Shown here piece after piece: positions 1,038 to 62,164 of a stretch of DNA of 64,000 bases (the first letter of the stretch is position 1; each line of letters begins with the position of its first letter). A program made the position numbers and the translations under genes. The stretch is from Escherichia phage PGN6866. The notes under the pieces were generated by a model that saw only the letters and a program-made list of their open reading frames with translations, did not search any database and was not told where the DNA came from. The stretch lies in the sequence record MT127620; one strand, given 5' to 3'.

Positions 1038-1550
1038 GTGACTGTTAGCCCTGCGTCTTTAGCTAGTCTAGAGACAGGGGCTACTCGGCAGTTCACTGCA
1101 AGCGCGGAGAAAAGTGATGGTTCTACCGAAACAACTGGCTTTACTTGGTCAGTGACAGGAGGTGGTTCTATCACTCAGTCGGGTTTGTATACTGCTCCGA
1201 GTGCGTCTCAATCCACTGATGTATCCATTACTGCAACTTTAGAAGGTGTTTCTGGAACAGCAACCATTTCTGAAATTGTTGCTCCTACTCCTACTATTGT
1301 AGCTAAGGGTCCAATTACGGGTAAAACTGGTGGTTCCTCCACTAATTTCACTACCATGTTTACTGTAACTAATTCTGCTGCTGCGGATTACACGTTTGTT
1401 GTAACTCCTACAGAAGCTGGTACAGTAAGCGCAGCTGGTGCGTTAACCTTAGATTCTGCTGCAAGTGGCGAAGTTACTGTTCAAGCAAGTTTGACAGCTG
1501 ATCCGTCCATCAATGCAACATGCACTTTTACTGGTGTAACACCTGCTTAA
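1038..1550 (+). CDS. Ig-like (Big_2) domain ORF, probably expressed as C-terminal frameshift extension of the capsid protein
   Basis: Translation has Big_2-like pattern (TxxFTASxxxxDGS...WSVTGG...SGLYTA); in -1 frame of capsid gene; GTG is the only start. Confidence 0.55.
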   Translation: MTVSPASLASLETGATRQFTASAEKSDGSTETTGFTWSVTGGGSITQSGLYTAPSASQSTDVSITATLEGVSGTATISEIVAPTPTIVAKGPITGKTGGSSTNFTTMFTVTNSAAADYTFVVTPTEAGTVSAAGALTLDSAASGEVTVQASLTADPSINATCTFTGVTPA

Positions 1551-2413: not shown

Positions 2414-5056
2414 ATGATCGTTTATAATAACCAAGCACCTGATGCAGTGAATAACGTTGGGCAGTTTGGTGCTACTGAAGGCTCTATCGGAGCTTACAAG
2501 CAAGCAGCAGAGTATGCAGCTGACTCCAAATATTGGGCACTGCTAGCGGAGTCTAAGTTTGGTACAATCGATGACTTGATCGCTGAAGTGGAACGTCTGT
2601 ATCAACAAGGTGTTCTGATGAAGCAAGATATCGAGGATCTTAAGCAGGATTTTAAAGATCAAGATGCTCGTCTAATGACGTTAATTGCTCAAACTAACGC
2701 AGCAGTCTCTGATGCAAATAACGCAGTCGCCCTGATTAACCAGAAACTCATTGAAGTCCAGAATCAGCTTGATGTTCTGTTAGGAATGTCTGTTGATGTA
2801 ACAACCCTCCCTCCGGGAACTCCGGCTACTGGTTCTTTTAATCCTAACACTGGTGTAATTTCTTTAGGTATCCCAGAAGGTGAACCCGGAAAAGATGGTT
2901 CTGTTAAAGACTTGGATACAGCACCTACAGGTGTTCCAGAGCTAGGTGACTTGGGTTTCTATGTTGACAAAGATGACAATACCGTCCATAAAACTACTCT
3001 AGAGAATATTGCTAACTTAATCCCATCTGTTCGTTCTGTTTCTGTTAATGGGGGACCAGCTCTTGATGGAGAGGTTGCTCTAACAATCAACAAAGAGACA
3101 GTAGGTTTAGGAAATGTTCTGAACGTTGCTCAATACAGTCGTCAAGAGATTAATGACAAATTTGACAAGACTACCAAGACATACCAATCAAAAGCAGAAG
3201 CTGATGCTGATGCTCAGTATCGTCAAGTAGGTGAGAAAGTTTTAGTTTGGGAAGCTACTAAGTATGAATTCTATACTGTTGCTGCTAACAAAACACTAAC
3301 TCCTGTTAAAACTGAAGGTAGGATCCTTACTGTTAACTCCCGTTCTCCAGATTCCAGTGGTAACATTGACATTACTATTCCAACAGGAAACCCTTCTCTG
3401 TATCTTGGTGAGATGGTGATGTTCCCTTATGACCCAACGAAGAATATCTCCTATCCGGGTGTTCTTCCAGCTGACGGTCGTCTAGTATCTAAAGAATCTG
3501 CTTCAGACTTAGGTCCATCTCTTGTCAGTGGACAACTTCCTGTTGTTTCTGAAACTGAATGGCAAGCAGGGGCTAAACAATATTTCTCATGGGGTAAGCT
3601 AGCAGATGGGATTACTGATGCGGATTCTACTAATTTCATCAATATTCGACTTCCTGATTGGACTGGAGGGGAGGCAATAAGAGCACCAGATTCTGATAAA
3701 GATTCTCAGTATAATGGGTCTGTACAGGCTCAGAAACCTTATGTTGTCACTGTAAATAACCAAGCTCCTGATGAGATTACTGGTAATGTGAACATCTCCA
3801 GATCTATCTTGGGAGCAGCTTCTTCTGGTGCAAACTCTGATATAACATCCCTGACAGGACTCACTACAGCTCTCTCTATCGCTCAAGGCGGTACAGGAGG
3901 GAAAACTCCATCTGAAGCTAGGGCAAACCTGAATCTTGAAAGATTTCAACAAGACAATTCGCAGACTTTGATATATTCTCCTGATTATGCCCGTCGTGTT
4001 TATGTTGACAACACTGGTGGTTCTTGGGGGTGCCAGAACGTAACAGATGGCGGTTTTATTGCTCTTGGTATTCCTCAAGGGGGTACGGGAGCTAAGGATG
4101 CTGCTGGTGCACGAAGCAATCTCGGTTTGGGTTCAGTGTCCACGCTAAACAATATACCCGTAGCTAATGGAGGTACTGGAGCAACTACTGCTGCTGGTGC
4201 TCGTTCCAACTTAGGTCTCGGGAGTGTTTCTACTCTAGATAACGTCCCTATCGCTAGCGGTGGGACAGGTGCTGGGGATGCTGCTGGTGCAAGGTTTAAC
4301 CTAGGGTTGGGGAGTTCAGCTACTCTAAACACTGGAACTACCAGCGGTAATGTTCTTAAGGTTGGTGATTTTGGAATTGGAAGACCTGACGGTGCTCTTG
4401 TTTTTGATACTACTTCACAAGACCAACTTCTTGCTGGACTTGACACTTATGGGCTGTGTGTGTTTAGGAATAACCAACAAATAGCAGCACCTTGGGATAT
4501 ATGGAATTACTCCTCAAACCTCTTCTTTAGGGCAGGAGACACATACAGTATGATAAGTATTCCGTTTGAGTCTGCCGGTAAGATAAAAGTTTTTGGTGGT
4601 GCAGCAGGCAGTGGGTGGAAAACCTCAAGGACGGTATATGATACTGTAAATACAACTGTTGACGTCAATGGCTTTATCAAAGCAGCGTCACCAATAGTTA
4701 AGGTATTCCATGACGGAAGTTTTGAAACAAATGAACAATCTGATGGAGTTAGTGTTAAGAAAATCTCCACTGGGGTTTATTTAATTTCAGGGTGTCTTGG
4801 TCTTAATTCTGATGCAGGATGGGGTGGGGTAGATGGAGGCTTTGAAATCCCAATAGACCGAAACAAACAACCTAGAGTTTGGCTTGACTATGAGGTTAAA
4901 GAGGATGGTTCTCTTTTAATTAAAACTTATCATAGAACCCATTCAACATCCCCAGCTTTTGCTAGAAACGAGTTGGAAGGTTTTTCTGACGGAGACCCTG
5001 TTGACATTCCTAAGGATGCGTTCATTTCGGTTCGTGTTGAAATGCCTTCTAAGTAA
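2414..5056 (+). CDS. Tail fibre protein with repeated GGTG-x(6-8)-AR-x-NLGLG motifs
   Basis: Four tandem copies of a GGTGA..AGAR.NLGLGS repeat typical of phage tail fibres; RBS taaggag. Confidence 0.8.
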   Translation: MIVYNNQAPDAVNNVGQFGATEGSIGAYKQAAEYAADSKYWALLAESKFGTIDDLIAEVERLYQQGVLMKQDIEDLKQDFKDQDARLMTLIAQTNAAVSDANNAVALINQKLIEVQNQLDVLLGMSVDVTTLPPGTPATGSFNPNTGVISLGIPEGEPGKDGSVKDLDTAPTGVPELGDLGFYVDKDDNTVHKTTLENIANLIPSVRSVSVNGGPALDGEVALTINKETVGLGNVLNVAQYSRQEINDKFDKTTKTYQSKAEADADAQYRQVGEKVLVWEATKYEFYTVAANKTLTPVKTEGRILTVNSRSPDSSGNIDITIPTGNPSLYLGEMVMFPYDPTKNISYPGVLPADGRLVSKESASDLGPSLVSGQLPVVSETEWQAGAKQYFSWGKLADGITDADSTNFINIRLPDWTGGEAIRAPDSDKDSQYNGSVQAQKPYVVTVNNQAPDEITGNVNISRSILGAASSGANSDITSLTGLTTALSIAQGGTGGKTPSEARANLNLERFQQDNSQTLIYSPDYARRVYVDNTGGSWGCQNVTDGGFIALGIPQGGTGAKDAAGARSNLGLGSVSTLNNIPVANGGTGATTAAGARSNLGLGSVSTLDNVPIASGGTGAGDAAGARFNLGLGSSATLNTGTTSGNVLKVGDFGIGRPDGALVFDTTSQDQLLAGLDTYGLCVFRNNQQIAAPWDIWNYSSNLFFRAGDTYSMISIPFESAGKIKVFGGAAGSGWKTSRTVYDTVNTTVDVNGFIKAASPIVKVFHDGSFETNEQSDGVSVKKISTGVYLISGCLGLNSDAGWGGVDGGFEIPIDRNKQPRVWLDYEVKEDGSLLIKTYHRTHSTSPAFARNELEGFSDGDPVDIPKDAFISVRVEMPSK

Positions 5057-56957: not shown

Positions 56958-57212
56958 CTACGAAGTTAAGATGATTTCAGCCTTAATAAACTTCTCACCA
57001 ACAACCATATCACCAGAGATGACACGTAGTTCTCCAGTGCCTAGGTTAACAGCTCCAGCAGGTTGACAACCCCTGCTTTTAGCTGTCATCATATAAACCT
57101 TTTGATTTTGGCACTCTTGGAGAGTGAACACATCTGACATATTTAGATCTCTGACGCGGAGGATTTTTTCCTCTTTGTCTTTAACTTTAATGTTAATAAT
57201 GCTCATATGCAC
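56958..57212 (-). CDS. Small protein, member of 8-copy paralogous family
   Basis: Shared pattern L..L..G.VF ... VNL.TG ... V. Confidence 0.5.
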   Translation of the reverse strand: MHMSIINIKVKDKEEKILRVRDLNMSDVFTLQECQNQKVYMMTAKSRGCQPAGAVNLGTGELRVISGDMVVGEKFIKAEIILTS

Positions 57213-57457
57213 TACTCCTGAACCACTGACATACGAATCATTTCTACCTGATCATCAAGACCTTTAACAGATAACACACCTGTGGAAAGGTTTACCACAG
57301 GAACCCAACCACTGGCTATACGGATGTTACCAGAAGCATTTTCAACCCTCATGTAATACTGAGGAGAGGCACTTCCGTTCTGAACCACGAAAGGGTTTCC
57401 GGGAATGATTGTTTCCAATCGTACCGTATTATCCTTTTTCTTTGGGATGATTTTCAT
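57212..57457 (-). CDS. Small protein, paralogous family member
   Basis: Same family pattern. Confidence 0.5.
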   Translation of the reverse strand: MKIIPKKKDNTVRLETIIPGNPFVVQNGSASPQYYMRVENASGNIRIASGWVPVVNLSTGVLSVKGLDDQVEMIRMSVVQE

Positions 57458-57705
57458 TGCGTATTATCCACCAAAAGTTCTGCTGATACAGGAACAACCT
57501 GACAACGACCAAGAGGGGCTGAAACAACCCCATCACCTAGCCGGAGAGTAGGTATCCGGTTATCTGGGATTTTGATGTTAGGACTTAAGGTAACAATCCC
57601 TTTCACATAAAGATCTTCATTGTGTGGGAATTTAAACACAGAACCATTAGCTAGAGAGCTTAGCTCTACTGCTTCTACTTCCTCTTTCTTATATGTGATT
57701 TTCAT
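57454..57705 (-). CDS. Small protein, paralogous family member
   Basis: Same family pattern. Confidence 0.5.
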   Translation of the reverse strand: MKITYKKEEVEAVELSSLANGSVFKFPHNEDLYVKGIVTLSPNIKIPDNRIPTLRLGDGVVSAPLGRCQVVPVSAELLVDNTQ

Positions 57706-57713
57706 ATTGATTC

Positions 57714-58025
57714 CTATTTAAGTTTGAGGCTAATGTTAAGGTGCATACATGCCCTGTTCTGTACAGCAGCATAACTTCTACCGAGCATGTCAGCCATTCT
57801 CTGAATAGACATGAACCCAGCATTACGGATAAGGAACTGATCTTCTTCTTCAGACCACTTAACTCGGATTGAGGCTCTTGATATTCCGAATTTAGTACAA
57901 GCTGTGTTAACTGCATTCTCCGTTACATTCATAATCTGAGCAACTTCTTGAACCGAGTACTCTTTGATTAGTCTCCGAAGATTTTCAATCTGCATCGGAG
58001 TCCATATAGTTCTTCGTGCTTTCAT
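57714..58025 (-). CDS. Putative transcription regulator with two HTH-like segments
   Basis: YSVQEVAQIMNVTENAV and MSIQRMADMLGRSYAAV resemble sigma region-4 / HTH motifs. Confidence 0.5.
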   Translation of the reverse strand: MKARRTIWTPMQIENLRRLIKEYSVQEVAQIMNVTENAVNTACTKFGISRASIRVKWSEEEDQFLIRNAGFMSIQRMADMLGRSYAAVQNRACMHLNISLKLK

Positions 58026-58053
58026 ACATCCTCCAATTAGCTATTATTCAATT

Positions 58054-58199
58054 TGGTTACAGGTGTAGGATTCGAACCTACGCTCGGACTCCCTAGCCAT
58101 CACCAAAGGAATGCATCCAATGGGCATACGGTCATTCGACCACGGGCGACTGCTTTACCGTAGACTCTGCATTACTGAGTCCCATAAGCTATACCTGTA
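58054..58199 (-). ncRNA. tRNA-like element (147 nt): canonical T-arm, 7-bp acceptor-like closing stem, encoded CCA, ~70 nt extra internal sequence
   Basis: 5' tacaggt pairs with 3' acctgta; T-arm gtagg-ttcgaat-cctac; ends a-cca; no canonical D or anticodon arm found. Confidence 0.3.
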
Positions 58200-58559
58200 A
58201 TTAAAAGGTTGTTCCACATTTACCCTAAAGTTATTGGGGAGTACACTAGCTCTGGGCCACGCTGTAGATATCGGCCTACCTTCCACAGCTAATCAGCTAA
58301 TGTACTCTCCTAATAGTTTATGAATAGGGGGAGGGGACGAATCCTCCCTTATCCTATTAATTAATATTGCATGTAAGACCTAACAATCGGTTGCCTTTGT
58401 AGGAATAAGCGTTATGCTAATCCAGCACTAAACTCCCGCCCCCTTAGTGGGCTGGGTTATTAAAGGGTAACGCCCTTATGGGCTAGTTACATGAATGTTA
58501 GTTTGATAGGAGATCTGAAGTCCTATCTCAAAGGACTCTCGTAAGAATCCTTCACGATA

Positions 58560-58691
58560 TTACTTATTCATCTCTCGTCGGCTATCTCTCCAAGCCAACC
58601 AAGTGTAGGTTTTCAGTTCTTCAAAGTCTTCTGGAGAGAATAGATACTCTTTGAAGGTGTTTCCAAACCACTCTAAAAATTCTTTAGTCAT
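58560..58691 (-). CDS. Small hypothetical protein (43 aa)
   Basis: Hand-translated; TAATG coupling to upstream gene. Confidence 0.3.
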   Translation of the reverse strand: MTKEFLEWFGNTFKEYLFSPEDFEELKTYTWLAWRDSRREMNK

Positions 58692-58933
58692 TAGTCCTCA
58701 TACTTTTTGTTAGGAAGGATGAAATCCCACAGGGCAGCCCACAAGACAAGGGATATAAAAACCACAGCAACGATAGGCCATAGAAAAACTATAATTGCTA
58801 TCTTTGATAGGTTTGGTTCGTTGTTCCACCCTCTGAACTCCACACTACCTTTTACGTCAAGGAATTTTATCAGAGCTGAAACCATTACCATACCTGTCAA
58901 GTAAGTAATCAAGATACTAACAGGACTGATCAC
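58691..58933 (-). CDS. Small membrane protein (2-3 TM helices)
   Basis: Hydrophobic profile. Confidence 0.5.
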   Translation of the reverse strand: MISPVSILITYLTGMVMVSALIKFLDVKGSVEFRGWNNEPNLSKIAIIVFLWPIVAVVFISLVLWAALWDFILPNKKYED

Positions 58934-59090
58934 AAGGTTGATCTCCGCATGTTTTACAGATCACTGGTGAGTAACTACAGGCAGGGTATACTGACACCCC
59001 ATCAAATGTCTCACACCCACAGTCAGGGCATGTACCATTGGATTCCATGTCGTCGTCATCACACACTTCACCGCCACCAAAACAACTCAT
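58917..59090 (-). CDS. Small Cys-rich Zn-ribbon-like protein (57 aa)
   Basis: Hand-translated; CPDCGC...CKTCG motifs. Confidence 0.35.
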   Translation of the reverse strand: MSCFGGGEVCDDDDMESNGTCPDCGCETFDGVSVYPACSYSPVICKTCGDQPCDQSC

Positions 59091-59099
59091 ACAGACTCC

Positions 59100-59321
59100 C
59101 TAATAAACTAAACCTACAGCCTTTGCATCAGGTTGAGGGACTACCTTTGCGCTAGGGCGATAACCATCCACTGAACCGTTCCAAAGATTGACACAGGTGA
59201 TATATCCATCGTTTATGATGTCTGTTTTAATCCAGAAGTGTTTATCATGACCAAAAATACTTCCGTTTGGCAGCGTGGACAGCTCAACGGTTTTAAGGGA
59301 CTGCTTAGAGTCTAGTTTCAT
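59100..59321 (-). CDS. Small protein, paralogous family member
   Basis: VELSTLPNGSIF ... CVNLWNGSV pattern. Confidence 0.5.
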   Translation of the reverse strand: MKLDSKQSLKTVELSTLPNGSIFGHDKHFWIKTDIINDGYITCVNLWNGSVDGYRPSAKVVPQPDAKAVGLVY

Positions 59322-59328
59322 AATAACC

Positions 59329-59577
59329 TCAATTATCGTAGCATGTATTCCAATACATGTAGTTAACGTACGTTCTCGGTTTGATTCCGTACATGATGAA
59401 GTGAGTCTTCTTAATCCTTTCCTTCAGCTTGTAATAAAGGCCATCACTGAAGTTACCAATCTTTACTTGGAAGCGTAAGGAGCGAGCATCCATTCGAAGC
59501 ATAGAGATTAGCTGTACCCTACTACCTCCAGCCATCTCTTCAAGAAGCTTCTTTGTATTCCAATAATGAGCTGTCAT
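59329..59577 (-). CDS. Small hypothetical protein
   Basis: ORF. Confidence 0.5.
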   Translation of the reverse strand: MTAHYWNTKKLLEEMAGGSRVQLISMLRMDARSLRFQVKIGNFSDGLYYKLKERIKKTHFIMYGIKPRTYVNYMYWNTCYDN

Positions 59578-59578
59578 A

Positions 59579-59860
59579 TTACCACTCCTTACCGGTTGTT
59601 GTTACAGAACCACCACACCACTGCGCATCGGATAAGGTTTTAGTCTCCTCATCTACTGCTGCACCATTCAGGCATGAGATACCACTGTAACGCATATCAA
59701 TTTCACCAGAAGGAACCTTCTCGCCCTTATGCCAGCGAGAAACACAAACACCTTCCACTGCTACTGCACACCATCCATCAGGACGGCTCTGTACGCAGCC
59801 TGTAAGGGCTATGCAGACAAGGAAGATACAGATTAAGGATATTACACCACCCCAACTCAT
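59579..59860 (-). CDS. Small lipoprotein (candidate superinfection-exclusion or envelope-targeted protein)
   Basis: Signal peptide with lipobox ALTGC; RBS aggagg. Confidence 0.55.
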   Translation of the reverse strand: MSWGGVISLICIFLVCIALTGCVQSRPDGWCAVAVEGVCVSRWHKGEKVPSGEIDMRYSGISCLNGAAVDEETKTLSDAQWCGGSVTTTGKEW

Positions 59861-60000
59861 AACTACCTCCTATTTGATTTGGTGGACTATCTGGAATCGA
59901 ACCAGAAGCTCACTAAGAAAGTAATTCCCACTGTTATAAAAGCACTTGCCTCAACAGGGATACACTAACTCTGGTGCCGCACCCATACTAGCCCTAAATG

Positions 60001-60076
60001 TGGTGCGCCCTACAGGACTCGAACCTGTAACCAATAGCTTAGAAGGCTACTGCTCTATCCATTGAGCTAAGAGCGC
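60001..60076 (-). tRNA. tRNA-Arg (anticodon UCU), CCA encoded
   Basis: Manual fold: acceptor GCGCTCT/AGGGCGC, D-arm GCTC/GAGC, anticodon stem GTAGC/GCTAT with loop CTTCTAA, T-arm ACAGG-TTCGAGT-CCTGT. Confidence 0.85.
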
Positions 60077-60084
60077 AGAATTAT

Positions 60085-60249
60085 TTAGATCATATCTCGC
60101 TTGGTGATATGACCACATGTTTTACATCGAAGTATATAACGAGTACCTGTGTCTTCTATTTGACCGATCTCATTGTATATGTGTAAACGAATTTCTTTTA
60201 TTGTCTCCCAATCATGGAGATGGAAGAAACGTTTAAACCACTTGAACAT
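60085..60249 (-). CDS. Small hypothetical protein (start trimmed)
   Basis: ORF; C-terminal CKTCGH motif. Confidence 0.4.
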   Translation of the reverse strand: MFKWFKRFFHLHDWETIKEIRLHIYNEIGQIEDTGTRYILRCKTCGHITKRDMI

Positions 60250-60256
60250 ATTAACC

Positions 60257-60508
60257 TCAAGCACAAGCAGGGAGTGTGATGATCTTATACTTACCATCAA
60301 ACTCTCCAAATAAACCTAAGAATGTAGGACTGTAAGTACCAGTACAAACAAACTCATCAAACAGTGCGTTATAACTAGGCTTGATCTTCCAAGCCCATAC
60401 ATAGCCCATCTTATCGATTGCAATGTAACGAGTGTTCAGAGGAACAGTCATCATCACACTGTCAACTTCGATCACTTTAGTGATTGGTGCAGCTTGAAAG
60501 TTTTTCAT
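60257..60508 (-). CDS. Small hypothetical protein
   Basis: ORF. Confidence 0.5.
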   Translation of the reverse strand: MKNFQAAPITKVIEVDSVMMTVPLNTRYIAIDKMGYVWAWKIKPSYNALFDEFVCTGTYSPTFLGLFGEFDGKYKIITLPACA

Positions 60509-60738
60509 TATATAACCACCAATTTTAACGTTGCTTTATATTCTGTGACTGGAGCATCACCTGCAAATGAGAGCATGTGAGCGGGACAAGGTAGTCGCAC
60601 AGCTCGACCACCTGCAATCTTCATATAGAAACTCTTTTTATCATCAAGAAGATTGTCATCCAGTGTGAAGATGGACCCGACGGTCAGATCTCTGTATATC
60701 TTTTTAGTCGGTTTCGAAGAGTCTAGAATTATGTTCAT
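60508..60738 (-). CDS. Small protein, paralogous family member
   Basis: RDLTVGSIF ... pattern. Confidence 0.5.
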   Translation of the reverse strand: MNIILDSSKPTKKIYRDLTVGSIFTLDDNLLDDKKSFYMKIAGGRAVRLPCPAHMLSFAGDAPVTEYKATLKLVVI

Positions 60739-61687: not shown

Positions 61688-61906
61688 TTACTTTTGAGTC
61701 AAATACAAATCAGGGCGAGGCATAACAGTGGTTGATGGATTGAAATTACCAACATAACCAGTGCTTAGATTGGCAGCCCTACGTAGTCCATTAGAGAGAT
61801 CGTCATCTAGCATCAGCCAGAATTTTTGATCATAAGAGAAAACATCTCCCCCTTTAAGGTCTTCCACATTTGCATATTTAGGAGTCTCAACTACTTTAAT
61901 TTCCAT
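61688..61906 (-). CDS. Small protein, paralogous family member
   Basis: VEDLKGGDVF ... ANLSTG pattern. Confidence 0.5.
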   Translation of the reverse strand: MEIKVVETPKYANVEDLKGGDVFSYDQKFWLMLDDDLSNGLRRAANLSTGYVGNFNPSTTVMPRPDLYLTQK

Positions 61907-62164
61907 CTACTTACCCTTGTTGGTAATAATAACATCATGAAGAAGAACAATCTTGCTTTTCGAGCTAAGCTTAAGGACTTGCTTATTTGTCAGACTAAGG
62001 ACGACACAACCACCATCAGAAGGTTTAGTCTCCTCGACCTGTGATTTGAACAACTGAACAACCATGTAGAAATCTGCCCGTGTTTCCCTGATTTGGAATA
62101 CATCTCCAATTTTGAGATCACCAACACATAGAGATGGTTCATTTACCTTCAAATCAATCTTCAT
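61907..62164 (-). CDS. Small protein, paralogous family member
   Basis: VGDLKIGDVF pattern. Confidence 0.5.
   Translation of the reverse strand: MKIDLKVNEPSLCVGDLKIGDVFQIRETRADFYMVVQLFKSQVEETKPSDGGCVVLSLTNKQVLKLSSKSKIVLLHDVIITNKGK

Follow-up and report, generated by a model that had tools for sequence, protein, structure and literature searches.

Conserved structured RNA modules predicted in an ORF-free gap of the early operon of a phiEco32-like coliphage

Within an ORF-free gap of a Kuravirus (phiEco32-like podophage) genome, two modules designated here A and B are very probably conserved structured RNAs of the minus strand, as judged from comparative evidence. The window analysed, by which we mean the whole stretch of DNA, is 64,000 nucleotides of Escherichia phage PGN6866 (sequence record MT127620). 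Our fuller reading, which we favour by a modest degree, is that the two modules, along with a tRNA-like module C, would be co-transcribed, excised from the transcript and stable, and would act in trans and not as a cis leader. The first-pass annotation of this DNA had proposed that positions 58200-58560 may encode a structured non-coding RNA or a processed leader. The former is supported by covariation, by strand-specific G.U pairs and by conservation across unrelated phage families. The latter is not favoured, as A stands alone in phiEco32 and phage 7-11, with no tRNA-like RNA downstream; a leader function for a tRNA-like RNA is unlikely because A directly precedes protein genes in both of these phages. 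The region had also been taken for one element, and while it is indeed structured, it divides into two modules and a spacer (Table 1).

Table 1. Features of the non-coding gap, in coordinates of the window
Feature	Position	Strand	Description
Non-coding gap	58026-58559 (535 nt)	minus-strand operon	Between the end of a 43-aa ORF and the start of a D5-like regulator
Module A	58559-58323	minus	~237-nt predicted structured RNA of undescribed family; comparative model and MFE fold
H1	58553-58530	minus	10-bp hairpin GAAGGAUUCU / AGAGUCCUUU, loop UACG (58543-58540)
H2	58527-58505	minus	7-bp hairpin GAUAGGA / UCCUAUC, conserved 9-nt loop CUUCAGAUC (58520-58512)
P3	58501-58497 with 58384-58380	minus	5-bp helix (CUAAC with GUUAG) closing V; predicted by MFE
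V	58496-58385	minus	112-nt variable domain inside P3; hairpin Va (58490-58467) and G-rich Vb loop
3' block	58384-58370	minus	Near-invariant GUUAGGUCUUACAUG
Candidate pseudoknot	58379-58376 with 58516-58513	minus	GUCU with AGAU of the H2 loop; predicted, 4 pairs
P6	58358-58323	minus	Outer stem AAUAGG/CCUAUU, internal loop AUAA, inner stem GGGAGG/CCUCCC, loop AUUCGUCC (58342-58335)
Module B	58316-58231	minus	86-nt long irregular hairpin; ~20-bp basal stem and apical hairpin
Spacer	58230-58200	minus	31 nt between B and C; no structure predicted; only in the ~10 C-bearing phages
Module C	58199-58054	minus	146-nt tRNA-like RNA; T-arm/acceptor scan, with concordant fold

The assignment to Kuravirus was made by megablast, in which 109 records matched and Shigella phage ShigP1 was the best. 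Every plausible ORF around the gap lies on the minus strand, in agreement with the earlier claim that the flanking genes are co-directional; the upstream neighbour is a 43-aa ORF (TAA at 58562-58560) and the downstream one a D5-like transcriptional regulator that starts at 58025. The gap is thus wider than the ORF-free region first claimed. Its only ORF of at least 30 aa that touches 58200-58560 is a 43-aa GTG ORF (58286-58155, minus strand) that spans B, the spacer and C; relatives do not keep it intact, and in SU10, which lacks module C, it is disrupted. In the ShigP1 and SU10 records the equivalent gap carries no annotation. The description of the region as GC-punctuated holds locally only, with GC of 0.39-0.50 in 100-nt windows against 0.35-0.45 in the flanking genes. 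Both of the GC-rich palindromes that had been quoted are present: gggggaggggacgaatcctccc, at 58327-58348, makes up the inner stem and its loop in P6, the hairpin that terminates module A, and agggtaacgccctt, at 58464-58477, overlaps hairpin Va, where its pairing is a local competitor and the MFE fold favours another pairing. Folding energy alone is moderately unusual for the entire gap (MFE z = -2.3, minus strand).

This part of the genome corresponds to a long early operon which, in SU10 and phage 7-11, is read by the host sigma70 RNA polymerase from promoters near the right genome end, and in which internal terminators have not been detected (PMC4281155, PMC8948821, PMC4331800). The minus strand of the gap contains no sigma70-like sites, its positions 58026-58559 contain no terminator-like sites, and the motif of the phage sigma factor gp36 (tAATGTAt) is absent from the transcribed strand; the sole near match to TAATGTAT lies within B on the plus strand and is no better than chance. 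An intrinsic terminator calls for a GC-rich hairpin with a U tract directly behind it; P6 is followed in the window by CCUAUUCAUAAAC.

That module A is a real structure we regard as decided by the comparative evidence, which comprises 141-159 phage records and compensatory base changes. A total of 37-38 distinct A sequences was gathered, and the pairs of H1, H2, P3, the pseudoknot and the P6 inner stem were counted after the V domain and a Gamaleyavirus-specific insertion of ~190 nt had been taken out. In a direct count over 37 distinct sequences, 33 pairs were 99.3% canonical and 11 of them showed compensatory double changes, neither value being reached in any of 1000 shuffles; in a MAFFT alignment (A1, 32 sequences) 98.0% of cells were paired, against 38-59% with the partners slid by 1-3 columns, and 7 pairs were altered on both sides, which none of 500 shuffles matched, with the proviso that such shuffle controls overstate significance, as many of the sequences are closely related. 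No variation is seen in the outer stem of P6 or in three of the four pseudoknot pairs, P3 is invariant save for one C-G to U.G change, and these parts of the model are evidence neither for nor against it. Among the helix cells of module A there are 105 G.U and 2 A.C combinations, which argues that the helices hold only in the minus-strand RNA and not in DNA or in antisense RNA. The MFE fold of A alone (z = -3.2) returns H1, H2, P3 and P6 exactly as in the comparative model.

The 5' end of module A directly follows the upstream stop codon, and its 5' flank carries a conserved, unpaired A-N-C-G-U-R. H1 is built from different pair types across lineages (A-U/G-C, G.U/A-U/G-C and U-A/U.G/C-G), and its loop may be UACG, UUCG, UCCG, UCUG, UUAG or a GUN triloop, depending on the lineage. 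Compensatory changes affect three pairs of the H2 stem, which reads GAUAAGG/CCUUAUC in Gamaleyavirus and GUUGAGG/CCUUGAC in the 7-11 group in place of the Kuravirus form. V is swapped for unrelated sequences of 64-112 nt in the Suseptimavirus, G7C, PhAPEC7, ECBP1 and 7-11 types, with its flanks kept; the 3' strand of P3, GUUAG, is then followed by the near-invariant block GUCUUACAUGCAA, and at the DNA level GTTAG[G/A]TCTTACATG is invariant in all four lineages. The pseudoknot that would join this block to the H2 loop is a weakly supported candidate: every cell pairs, with zero mismatches, and its single variable position reads U.G, U-A and, once, C-G. A fifth pair was removed, as it clashes with P3. 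The P6 inner stem has six Watson-Crick pairs in each lineage, be it GGGAGG/CCUCCC, GAGGGA/UCCCUC or AGGCGG/CCGCCU, and the loop core YUCGUCC is kept in 34 of 37 sequences; the register of P6 was set lineage by lineage, since a register with a 7-nt loop misaligns the Kuravirus-type stems. An alternative pairing between the Vb loop and P6 was rejected, not being kept in the other V-domain types.

Conservation in related phages proved strong. The gap sequence matches 141 phage records, which fall into three tiers: about 10 with A, B and C, about 20 more with A and B (SU10, ES17 and others), and a majority with A only (phiEco32 and others). A more sensitive query with A and B raised the number to 159 records and, unexpectedly, brought in Gamaleyaviruses, namely G7C, PhAPEC5/7, ECBP1, IME11, Bp4 and Klebsiella relatives. 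The Gamaleyaviruses are N4-like Schitoviridae and are unrelated to Kuravirus. A much more divergent copy of A was found in Salmonella phage 7-11 by a pattern scan of IMG/VR, and BLAST identified its relatives SE131, SeKF_80 and pSal-SNUABM-01 as further carriers. Module A thereby occurs in four lineages (Kuravirus, Suseptimavirus, the Salmonella phage 7-11 group and Gamaleyavirus); virtually every Kuravirus and Suseptimavirus record retains it, and its helices are intact in every copy, the deep 7-11 branch included. Both A and B are shared by unrelated virulent podophages of enterobacteria. Metagenome and further IMG/VR scans returned these same four phage lineages and no others, a 15-mer scan of genome contigs gave only chance matches and an unrelated Photobacterium intergenic repeat, and in E. 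coli genomes neither a chromosomal homologue nor a mimicry target was found.

The surroundings of the modules differ greatly among these phages. A query of 7.9 kb matched Gamaleyavirus records in the non-coding region only, and other phages in the tRNA-Arg only; within 4 kb on either side, the A-bearing non-coding DNA is the sole DNA that this phage and the Gamaleyaviruses have in common. Between positions 58463 and 58232 the identity to PhAPEC7 is 83.5%, in genomes that are otherwise unrelated, and such high identity between families could stem in part from recent horizontal transfer as opposed to long-term selection. Relative to ShigP1, the gap is 100% identical and the surrounding 1251 nt are 94.1% identical. 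Contig L165 has the appearance of a Gamaleyavirus/Suseptimavirus hybrid with its junction inside A. The modules are also combined in various ways, with A alone in phiEco32 and 7-11, A and B in SU10, B without A in Klebsiella phage JZBo1 and A without B in G7C, which suggests that they act as independent RNA genes or exchangeable cassettes. As B and C are absent from many Kuraviruses, these two modules are dispensable for growth.

Module B (MFE z = -4.85) was examined with RNAalifold in 10 sequences from Kuravirus, Suseptimavirus, Gamaleyavirus and Klebsiella phage JZBo1, and 10 of its 33 pairs show compensatory changes. Several mismatches and G.U pairs occur in the stem, and in the predicted fold the loop of the apical hairpin is able to pair with a downstream GGCC. 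The basal stem is conserved and the apex varies between phages; the apex type found here is itself conserved across families, with compensatory changes, and the pairing of B survives through changes that differ between Kuravirus and Suseptimavirus. Both in B and in a second Gamaleyavirus hairpin family, basal stems are kept and the apical inserts are unrelated among phages. A fixed stem with a swapped apex, as seen in B, recalls processing stalks.

The 535-nt gap also contains the tRNA-like module C, of which the 31-nt spacer is the probable 5' leader. Module C has a 7-bp acceptor stem (UACAGGU/ACCUGUA, with C3-G70 at position 3-70), a canonical T-arm (GUAGG-UUCGAAU-CCUAC), a discriminator A and an encoded CCA, and it has neither a D arm nor an anticodon arm; it is called neither by ARAGORN nor by the Rfam tRNA and tmRNA models. 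The T-arm/acceptor end has matches in Gamaleyavirus loci, and the module as such is confined to about 10 Kuravirus records. A second tRNA-like RNA of the window, at 59996-59880, has G3.U70 and lacks a tag.

In the Gamaleyaviruses A likewise lies directly after a stop codon, in this case that of an unrelated small ORF, and may reach ~430 nt. There it heads an ORF-poor cluster of 1.2-1.9 kb that ends at a rho-independent terminator and holds module B, several CCA-ending tRNA-like RNAs, true tRNAs and a tmRNA-like tag frame. Where B is present in these phages it is always followed by the tag frame, which has no start codon, and then by the CCA-ending tRNA-like RNAs; G7C has A, and has neither B nor the tag module. 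The frames read ANDDVVLMAA or ANEEAYLMVA, to be compared with ANDENYALAA of E. coli. A search of the window for a frame of this kind found none, such frames being present only in the Gamaleyavirus loci.

The Rfam scan that had been suggested as a check gave no match for A or B. At the gathering threshold, Rfam 15 (4227 covariance models) detects only tRNA-Arg in the window, nothing relevant is added on the minus strand of 57900-60200 at E<=10, and the A and B sequences of G7C, PhAPEC7, phiEco32, IME267, PKM.Hi.22.6 and pSal-SNUABM-01 have no match either. ARAGORN reports no tRNA or tmRNA in the gap and, like RF00005, calls only the tRNA-Arg; A and B lack both acceptor stem and T-arm. Literature searches returned no description of an RNA corresponding to A or B. 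Several further ideas were discarded on inspection by eye: mimicry of the 16S rRNA 5' domain, SD/anti-SD pairing in P6, CsrA GGA sites, a T-loop in P6 and an integron attC core all involved motifs that are unconserved in the 7-11 or Gamaleyavirus versions or that occur at chance level.

Given the varied combinations of the modules, the Gamaleyavirus arrays and the stalk-like form of B, it is reasonable to postulate co-transcription, excision and stable RNAs. A, B and C would be co-transcribed with the sigma70-dependent early operon, and host nucleases would excise them from the polycistronic RNA: the cut at the 5' end of C would be made by RNase P, and those at the B stalk and in the flanks by RNase III or RNase E. 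The modules would then accumulate as stable, trans-acting RNAs, and would not serve as a cis leader for a downstream gene. They may be viewed as belonging to a "small stable RNA cassette array" of phages, alongside tRNAs, tRNA-like RNAs and the tmRNA-like tag module of Gamaleyavirus, and their most likely targets would be the machinery of translation, tRNA or RNA quality control in the host, or a defence system directed at that machinery. A bolder form of this proposal, which we offer tentatively and as a conjecture, is that A, B and C are RNA-only accessory cassettes exchanged by unrelated virulent coliphages. Module A might then be the founder of a new pseudoknotted class of phage RNA that binds or mimics a host translation, tRNA or tmRNA factor, possibly as a decoy against a tRNA- or ribosome-targeting defence, and the Gamaleyavirus array might include a non-canonical, phage-encoded tag module for trans-translation.

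Five rival explanations were weighed, and they are taken here in falling rank. The foremost, which we nonetheless consider unlikely, is that the modules are cis-acting elements for processing or stability of the early mRNA, in which H1 and P6 would shield the upstream and downstream segments from exonucleases or RNase E, the B duplex would be an RNase III site, and the RNA products themselves would be without function. This would agree with the position of A, which in every lineage starts 4-10 nt past the stop codons of differing upstream ORFs, and with the location of the modules inside a long operon that has no internal promoter or terminator. The UNCG-type loops of H1 are typical of stabilising hairpins, and hairpins with such loops have been discussed for phage 7-11 (PMC8948821). 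Furthermore, the retention of basal stems with swapped apices, in B as in the second Gamaleyavirus family, is the pattern expected where only a duplex is needed. Plain hairpins, however, have no need of a near-invariant H2 loop, 3' block and P6 loop in four lineages that differ in neighbours and in RNA polymerases; in phiEco32 and 7-11 the intergenic gap exists only through A; and the conservation of the window-type B apex across families, compensatory changes included, is at odds with a duplex-only role.

It is improbable that module A senses a ligand, cleaves itself or is catalytic in some other way, with a compact, pseudoknotted core and a dispensable periphery, and that it controls or cuts the transcript. 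The candidate pseudoknot, by which a hairpin loop would dock beside a junction helix, the near-invariant unpaired nucleotides, the peripheral domain of variable size and the A-N-C-G-U-R that is conserved outside of the helices are all features that such an RNA might be expected to display. Against this, no Rfam riboswitch or ribozyme model scores even at E<=10, there is no expression platform in the form of a terminator or a sequestered ribosome-binding site, the downstream genes differ, and the pseudoknot depends upon a single variable position.

A comparably small chance may be given to the idea that A-B-C is the decaying remnant of a larger RNA cluster of Gamaleyavirus type, gained by recombination and non-functional in Kuravirus. 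The identity to PhAPEC7 across otherwise unrelated genomes would fit such an origin, as would the occurrence of B and C in mere subsets of Kuraviruses and the lack here of the tag module that always follows B in Gamaleyavirus. A remnant would not be expected, however, to be kept in essentially all Kuravirus and Suseptimavirus phages and in the divergent 7-11 group, with compensatory changes and with helices intact in every copy, nor to be better conserved than the flanking genes, nor to maintain the B pairing by different changes in Kuravirus and Suseptimavirus.

A DNA-level element, such as a hotspot for recombination or homing, an attC-like site, an origin or a binding site for proteins, is very improbable. 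Homing-type endonuclease genes are found nearby in G7C (HNH gp47.1) and in some Kuraviruses, the L165 hybrid was apparently joined inside A, and CTAAC...GTTAGGT resembles the inverse-core and core sites of integrons; yet DNA hairpins, or the opposite strand, would carry mismatches at the G.U positions counted above, no integrase or other recombinase is associated, and the orientation is always co-directional with transcription. Last, missed small proteins, to which annotations in homologous regions (the 41-aa gp54 of PhAPEC7 and several ORFs on both strands of phage nithesis) and the 43-aa GTG ORF over B and C would point, are scarcely credible, as A holds no ORF of at least 30 aa, indels among homologues are not multiples of three, V is replaced wholesale, substitutions track base-pairing and not codon position, and SU10 breaks the 43-aa ORF.

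The locus merits attention on several counts. Kuraviruses (phiEco32, SU10, ES17) and Gamaleyaviruses (G7C and relatives) serve as models and as therapy candidates, and in their annotation the locus is blank or filled with spurious small ORFs. The modules are candidates for new RNA families, and A in particular is a predicted fold of ~240 nt that shows compensatory changes in four lineages which otherwise share no DNA in the stretch compared. Such a distribution suggests that RNA-only cassettes move horizontally among unrelated lytic phages that share a host. With the tRNA-like RNAs and the tmRNA-style tag frame of Gamaleyavirus, phage RNA control over host translation and its quality control becomes a testable idea, and in phage engineering the locus offers a defined candidate for deletion or for insertion of a payload.

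Among known systems, the tRNA gene cluster of phage T4 encodes the stable RNAs "species 1 and 2" (RNA C and D), which are structured and of unknown function; the stable RNAs of T4 arise from a polycistronic precursor with tRNAs that is matured by host tRNA-processing enzymes, RNase P or RNase E releasing them from it, and some have tRNA-like 3' ends. The likeness to the present modules is that of structured phage RNAs in a tRNA-type array, with the tRNA-like 3' end shared by module C, and it is one of genomic arrangement, a relationship in sequence or structure not being known. Module A exceeds them in size (~237 nt, with up to ~430 nt in Gamaleyavirus) and lacks a tRNA-like end. ROOL and GOLLD are likewise orphan, highly structured phage RNAs that lie by tRNA genes, have no protein gene and combine a conserved core with a variable periphery, and the gap has a context of this kind (tRNA-type neighbours and no partner protein gene), which speaks to context and not to membership. 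Their covariance models, however, give no hit at either the gathering or the E-value threshold, A is smaller by a factor of two to three, its hosts belong to the Enterobacteria as opposed to Firmicutes or rumen and lake taxa, and multimeric assembly in the style of ROOL and GOLLD is not a known feature of A.

A tmRNA (SsrA), forms of which may be phage-encoded or in two pieces, combines a tRNA-like domain bearing G3.U70 with an internal tag frame that opens at a resume codon and lies between pseudoknots. A resemblance to it is offered by Gamaleyavirus, in which B, the tag frame and CCA-ending tRNA-like RNAs occur together, and by the tRNA-like RNAs of the window, one of them with G3.U70. The window has no tag frame, however, and neither A nor B matches a tmRNA model. 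The Gamaleyavirus order, with the tag 5' of a complete tRNA-like domain, fits neither the one-piece nor the known permuted forms, and the tRNA-like domain adjoining the tag lacks G3.U70. An attempt to read A as part of a tmRNA was abandoned, in that E. coli ssrA and the B-to-C stretch of PhAPEC7 share only the start of the tag and a weak PK1-like run, and an apparent match of UUGGACUAAG to ssrA was ruled out, the actual sequence being GACUGACUAAG.

RNase III hairpins are found at the intergenic sites of the T7 early transcript and in the processing stalks of rRNA. As a long irregular duplex in a polycistronic early transcript, with a fixed basal stem and an exchangeable apex, B would resemble them, its ~20 bp comparing with about two turns; in contrast, the B stem has mismatches and G.U pairs, and one apex type covaries, for which a pure processing site would have no need. 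The put RNA of phage HK022 is a cis-acting processive antiterminator of two-hairpin design, and A is akin to it in being a structured RNA located early in a long operon that is read by the host RNA polymerase. However, A lies ~12 kb into the operon and not at its start, bears no similarity to the two-hairpin design, and in Gamaleyavirus sits in a unit believed to be transcribed by the N4-type phage polymerase. For phage 7-11, an undefined need for antitermination has been noted (PMC8948821). Modules A and B, then, fit no described family; the kind of element to which they belong, that of orphan structured phage RNAs in tRNA-type arrays, is known.

The window holds a second tRNA-like RNA in addition to module C, for which neither ARAGORN nor Rfam returned a call. 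We observe in this 117-nt element an acceptor stem composed of the pairs G1-C72, G2-C71, G3.U70, C4-G69, U5-A68 and A6-U67, together with a canonical T-arm, a discriminator A73 and an encoded CCA. The G3.U70 pair is the alanine identity pair, present in tRNA-Ala and in tmRNA. Phages SU10, ShigP1 and IME267 carry the element at 98-100% identity, the last of them being ~75% identical outside it, and phiEco32 lacks it. Module C itself has a 7-bp acceptor stem, a UUCGAAU T-loop and a CCA 3' end, with the D and anticodon arms replaced by ~100 nt of additional hairpins. Only about ten Kuravirus records carry module C, and its 3' end has a match in a 124-nt tRNA-like RNA of the Gamaleyavirus clusters.

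Coordinates of the features discussed; L numbers denote compared loci and "window" the PGN6866 stretch
Feature	Location	Strand	Remark
Second tRNA-like RNA, 117 nt	window 59880-59996	minus	between tRNA-Arg (60001-60076) and a 93-aa ORF
Module C	window 58054-58199	minus	
Vb-loop/P6 alternative pairing	window 58435-58444 and 58326-58335		
Candidate paralogous ORFs	window 57212-57705, 59100-59321, 60508-60738, 61688-62164	minus	by eye
Tag-like frame	L004 (PhAPEC7) ~3063-3095; also L009, L016, L024, L031, L032, L155, L156, L157		
Module B and second hairpin family with swapped apices	L004, L016, L031, L155, L156		Gamaleyavirus clusters
Essentially ORF-free RNA-module interval	L003 (G7C) 2504-3730; equivalents in L004, L009		
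HNH/'endonuclease' genes	L003 1800-2297; ev_rybdy3/8, XT18		G7C gp47.1; Kuravirus records
Mosaic module A	L165 ~1100-1500		metagenome contig OERT01002574.1
Photobacterium repeat with 15-mer	L035, L040, L068, L087, L089, L091, L094, L103, L104, L109		Photobacterium genomes

Within module A, the G-rich Vb loop AGGGGGCGGG (minus strand) is complementary at 9 of 10 positions to the 3' strand of the terminal hairpin P6, and this alternative pairing would open P6; the other V-domain types do not conserve it. One metagenomic copy of module A is a mosaic, its 5' half being of the Gamaleyavirus type, insertion included, and its 3' half and the sequence downstream of the Suseptimavirus type, which reflects either recombination inside the module between unrelated phages or a chimeric assembly. 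The module A 15-mer TTAGGTCTTACATGC also begins, in identical form, an intergenic repeat of Photobacterium, directly after a terminator-like hairpin; beyond this 15-mer the repeat and module A have nothing in common.

On visual inspection, several early ORFs nearby (72-85 aa) resemble paralogous members of a single small-protein family, with a common N-terminal MK.., a '..L..G..F..' motif and comparable length; in Salmonella phage 7-11, the ORF that precedes module A looks similar to them.

In G7C-like phages, the 1.2-1.9 kb that separate gp47.2 from the virion RNA polymerase gene are essentially devoid of ORFs and crowded with structured RNA modules; the small ORFs annotated there on both strands in some records (nithesis; PhAPEC7 gp54) are probably spurious. 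In module B, as in a second hairpin family (AAUUCAAAGUAGCACUG ... CAGUGCUACYCUGAAUU), the basal stem is retained and the apical insert is wholly different from phage to phage; both have the appearance of processing stalks whose payloads can be exchanged. In both phage families, some members have HNH or 'endonuclease' genes annotated near the RNA cluster, an arrangement that recalls the homing endonuclease genes of the T4 tRNA region.

A frame of 10 codons without a start codon occurs immediately 3' of module B in the Gamaleyaviruses and in Klebsiella phage JZBo1, and in PhAPEC7 a UAG lies in frame 8 codons 5' of it. The final two Ala codons show synonymous differences only (GCA GCC / GCG GCG / GCT GCT). 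The frame looks like a tag module of the tmRNA type. No canonical tmRNA was detected, and the tRNA-like domain adjoining it differs from that of tmRNA in having no G3.U70. Where the E. coli tmRNA tag reads ANDENYALAA, the phage frames read ANEEAYLMVA, followed by one stop codon, and ANDDVVLMAA or ANDDVILMAA, each followed by two.
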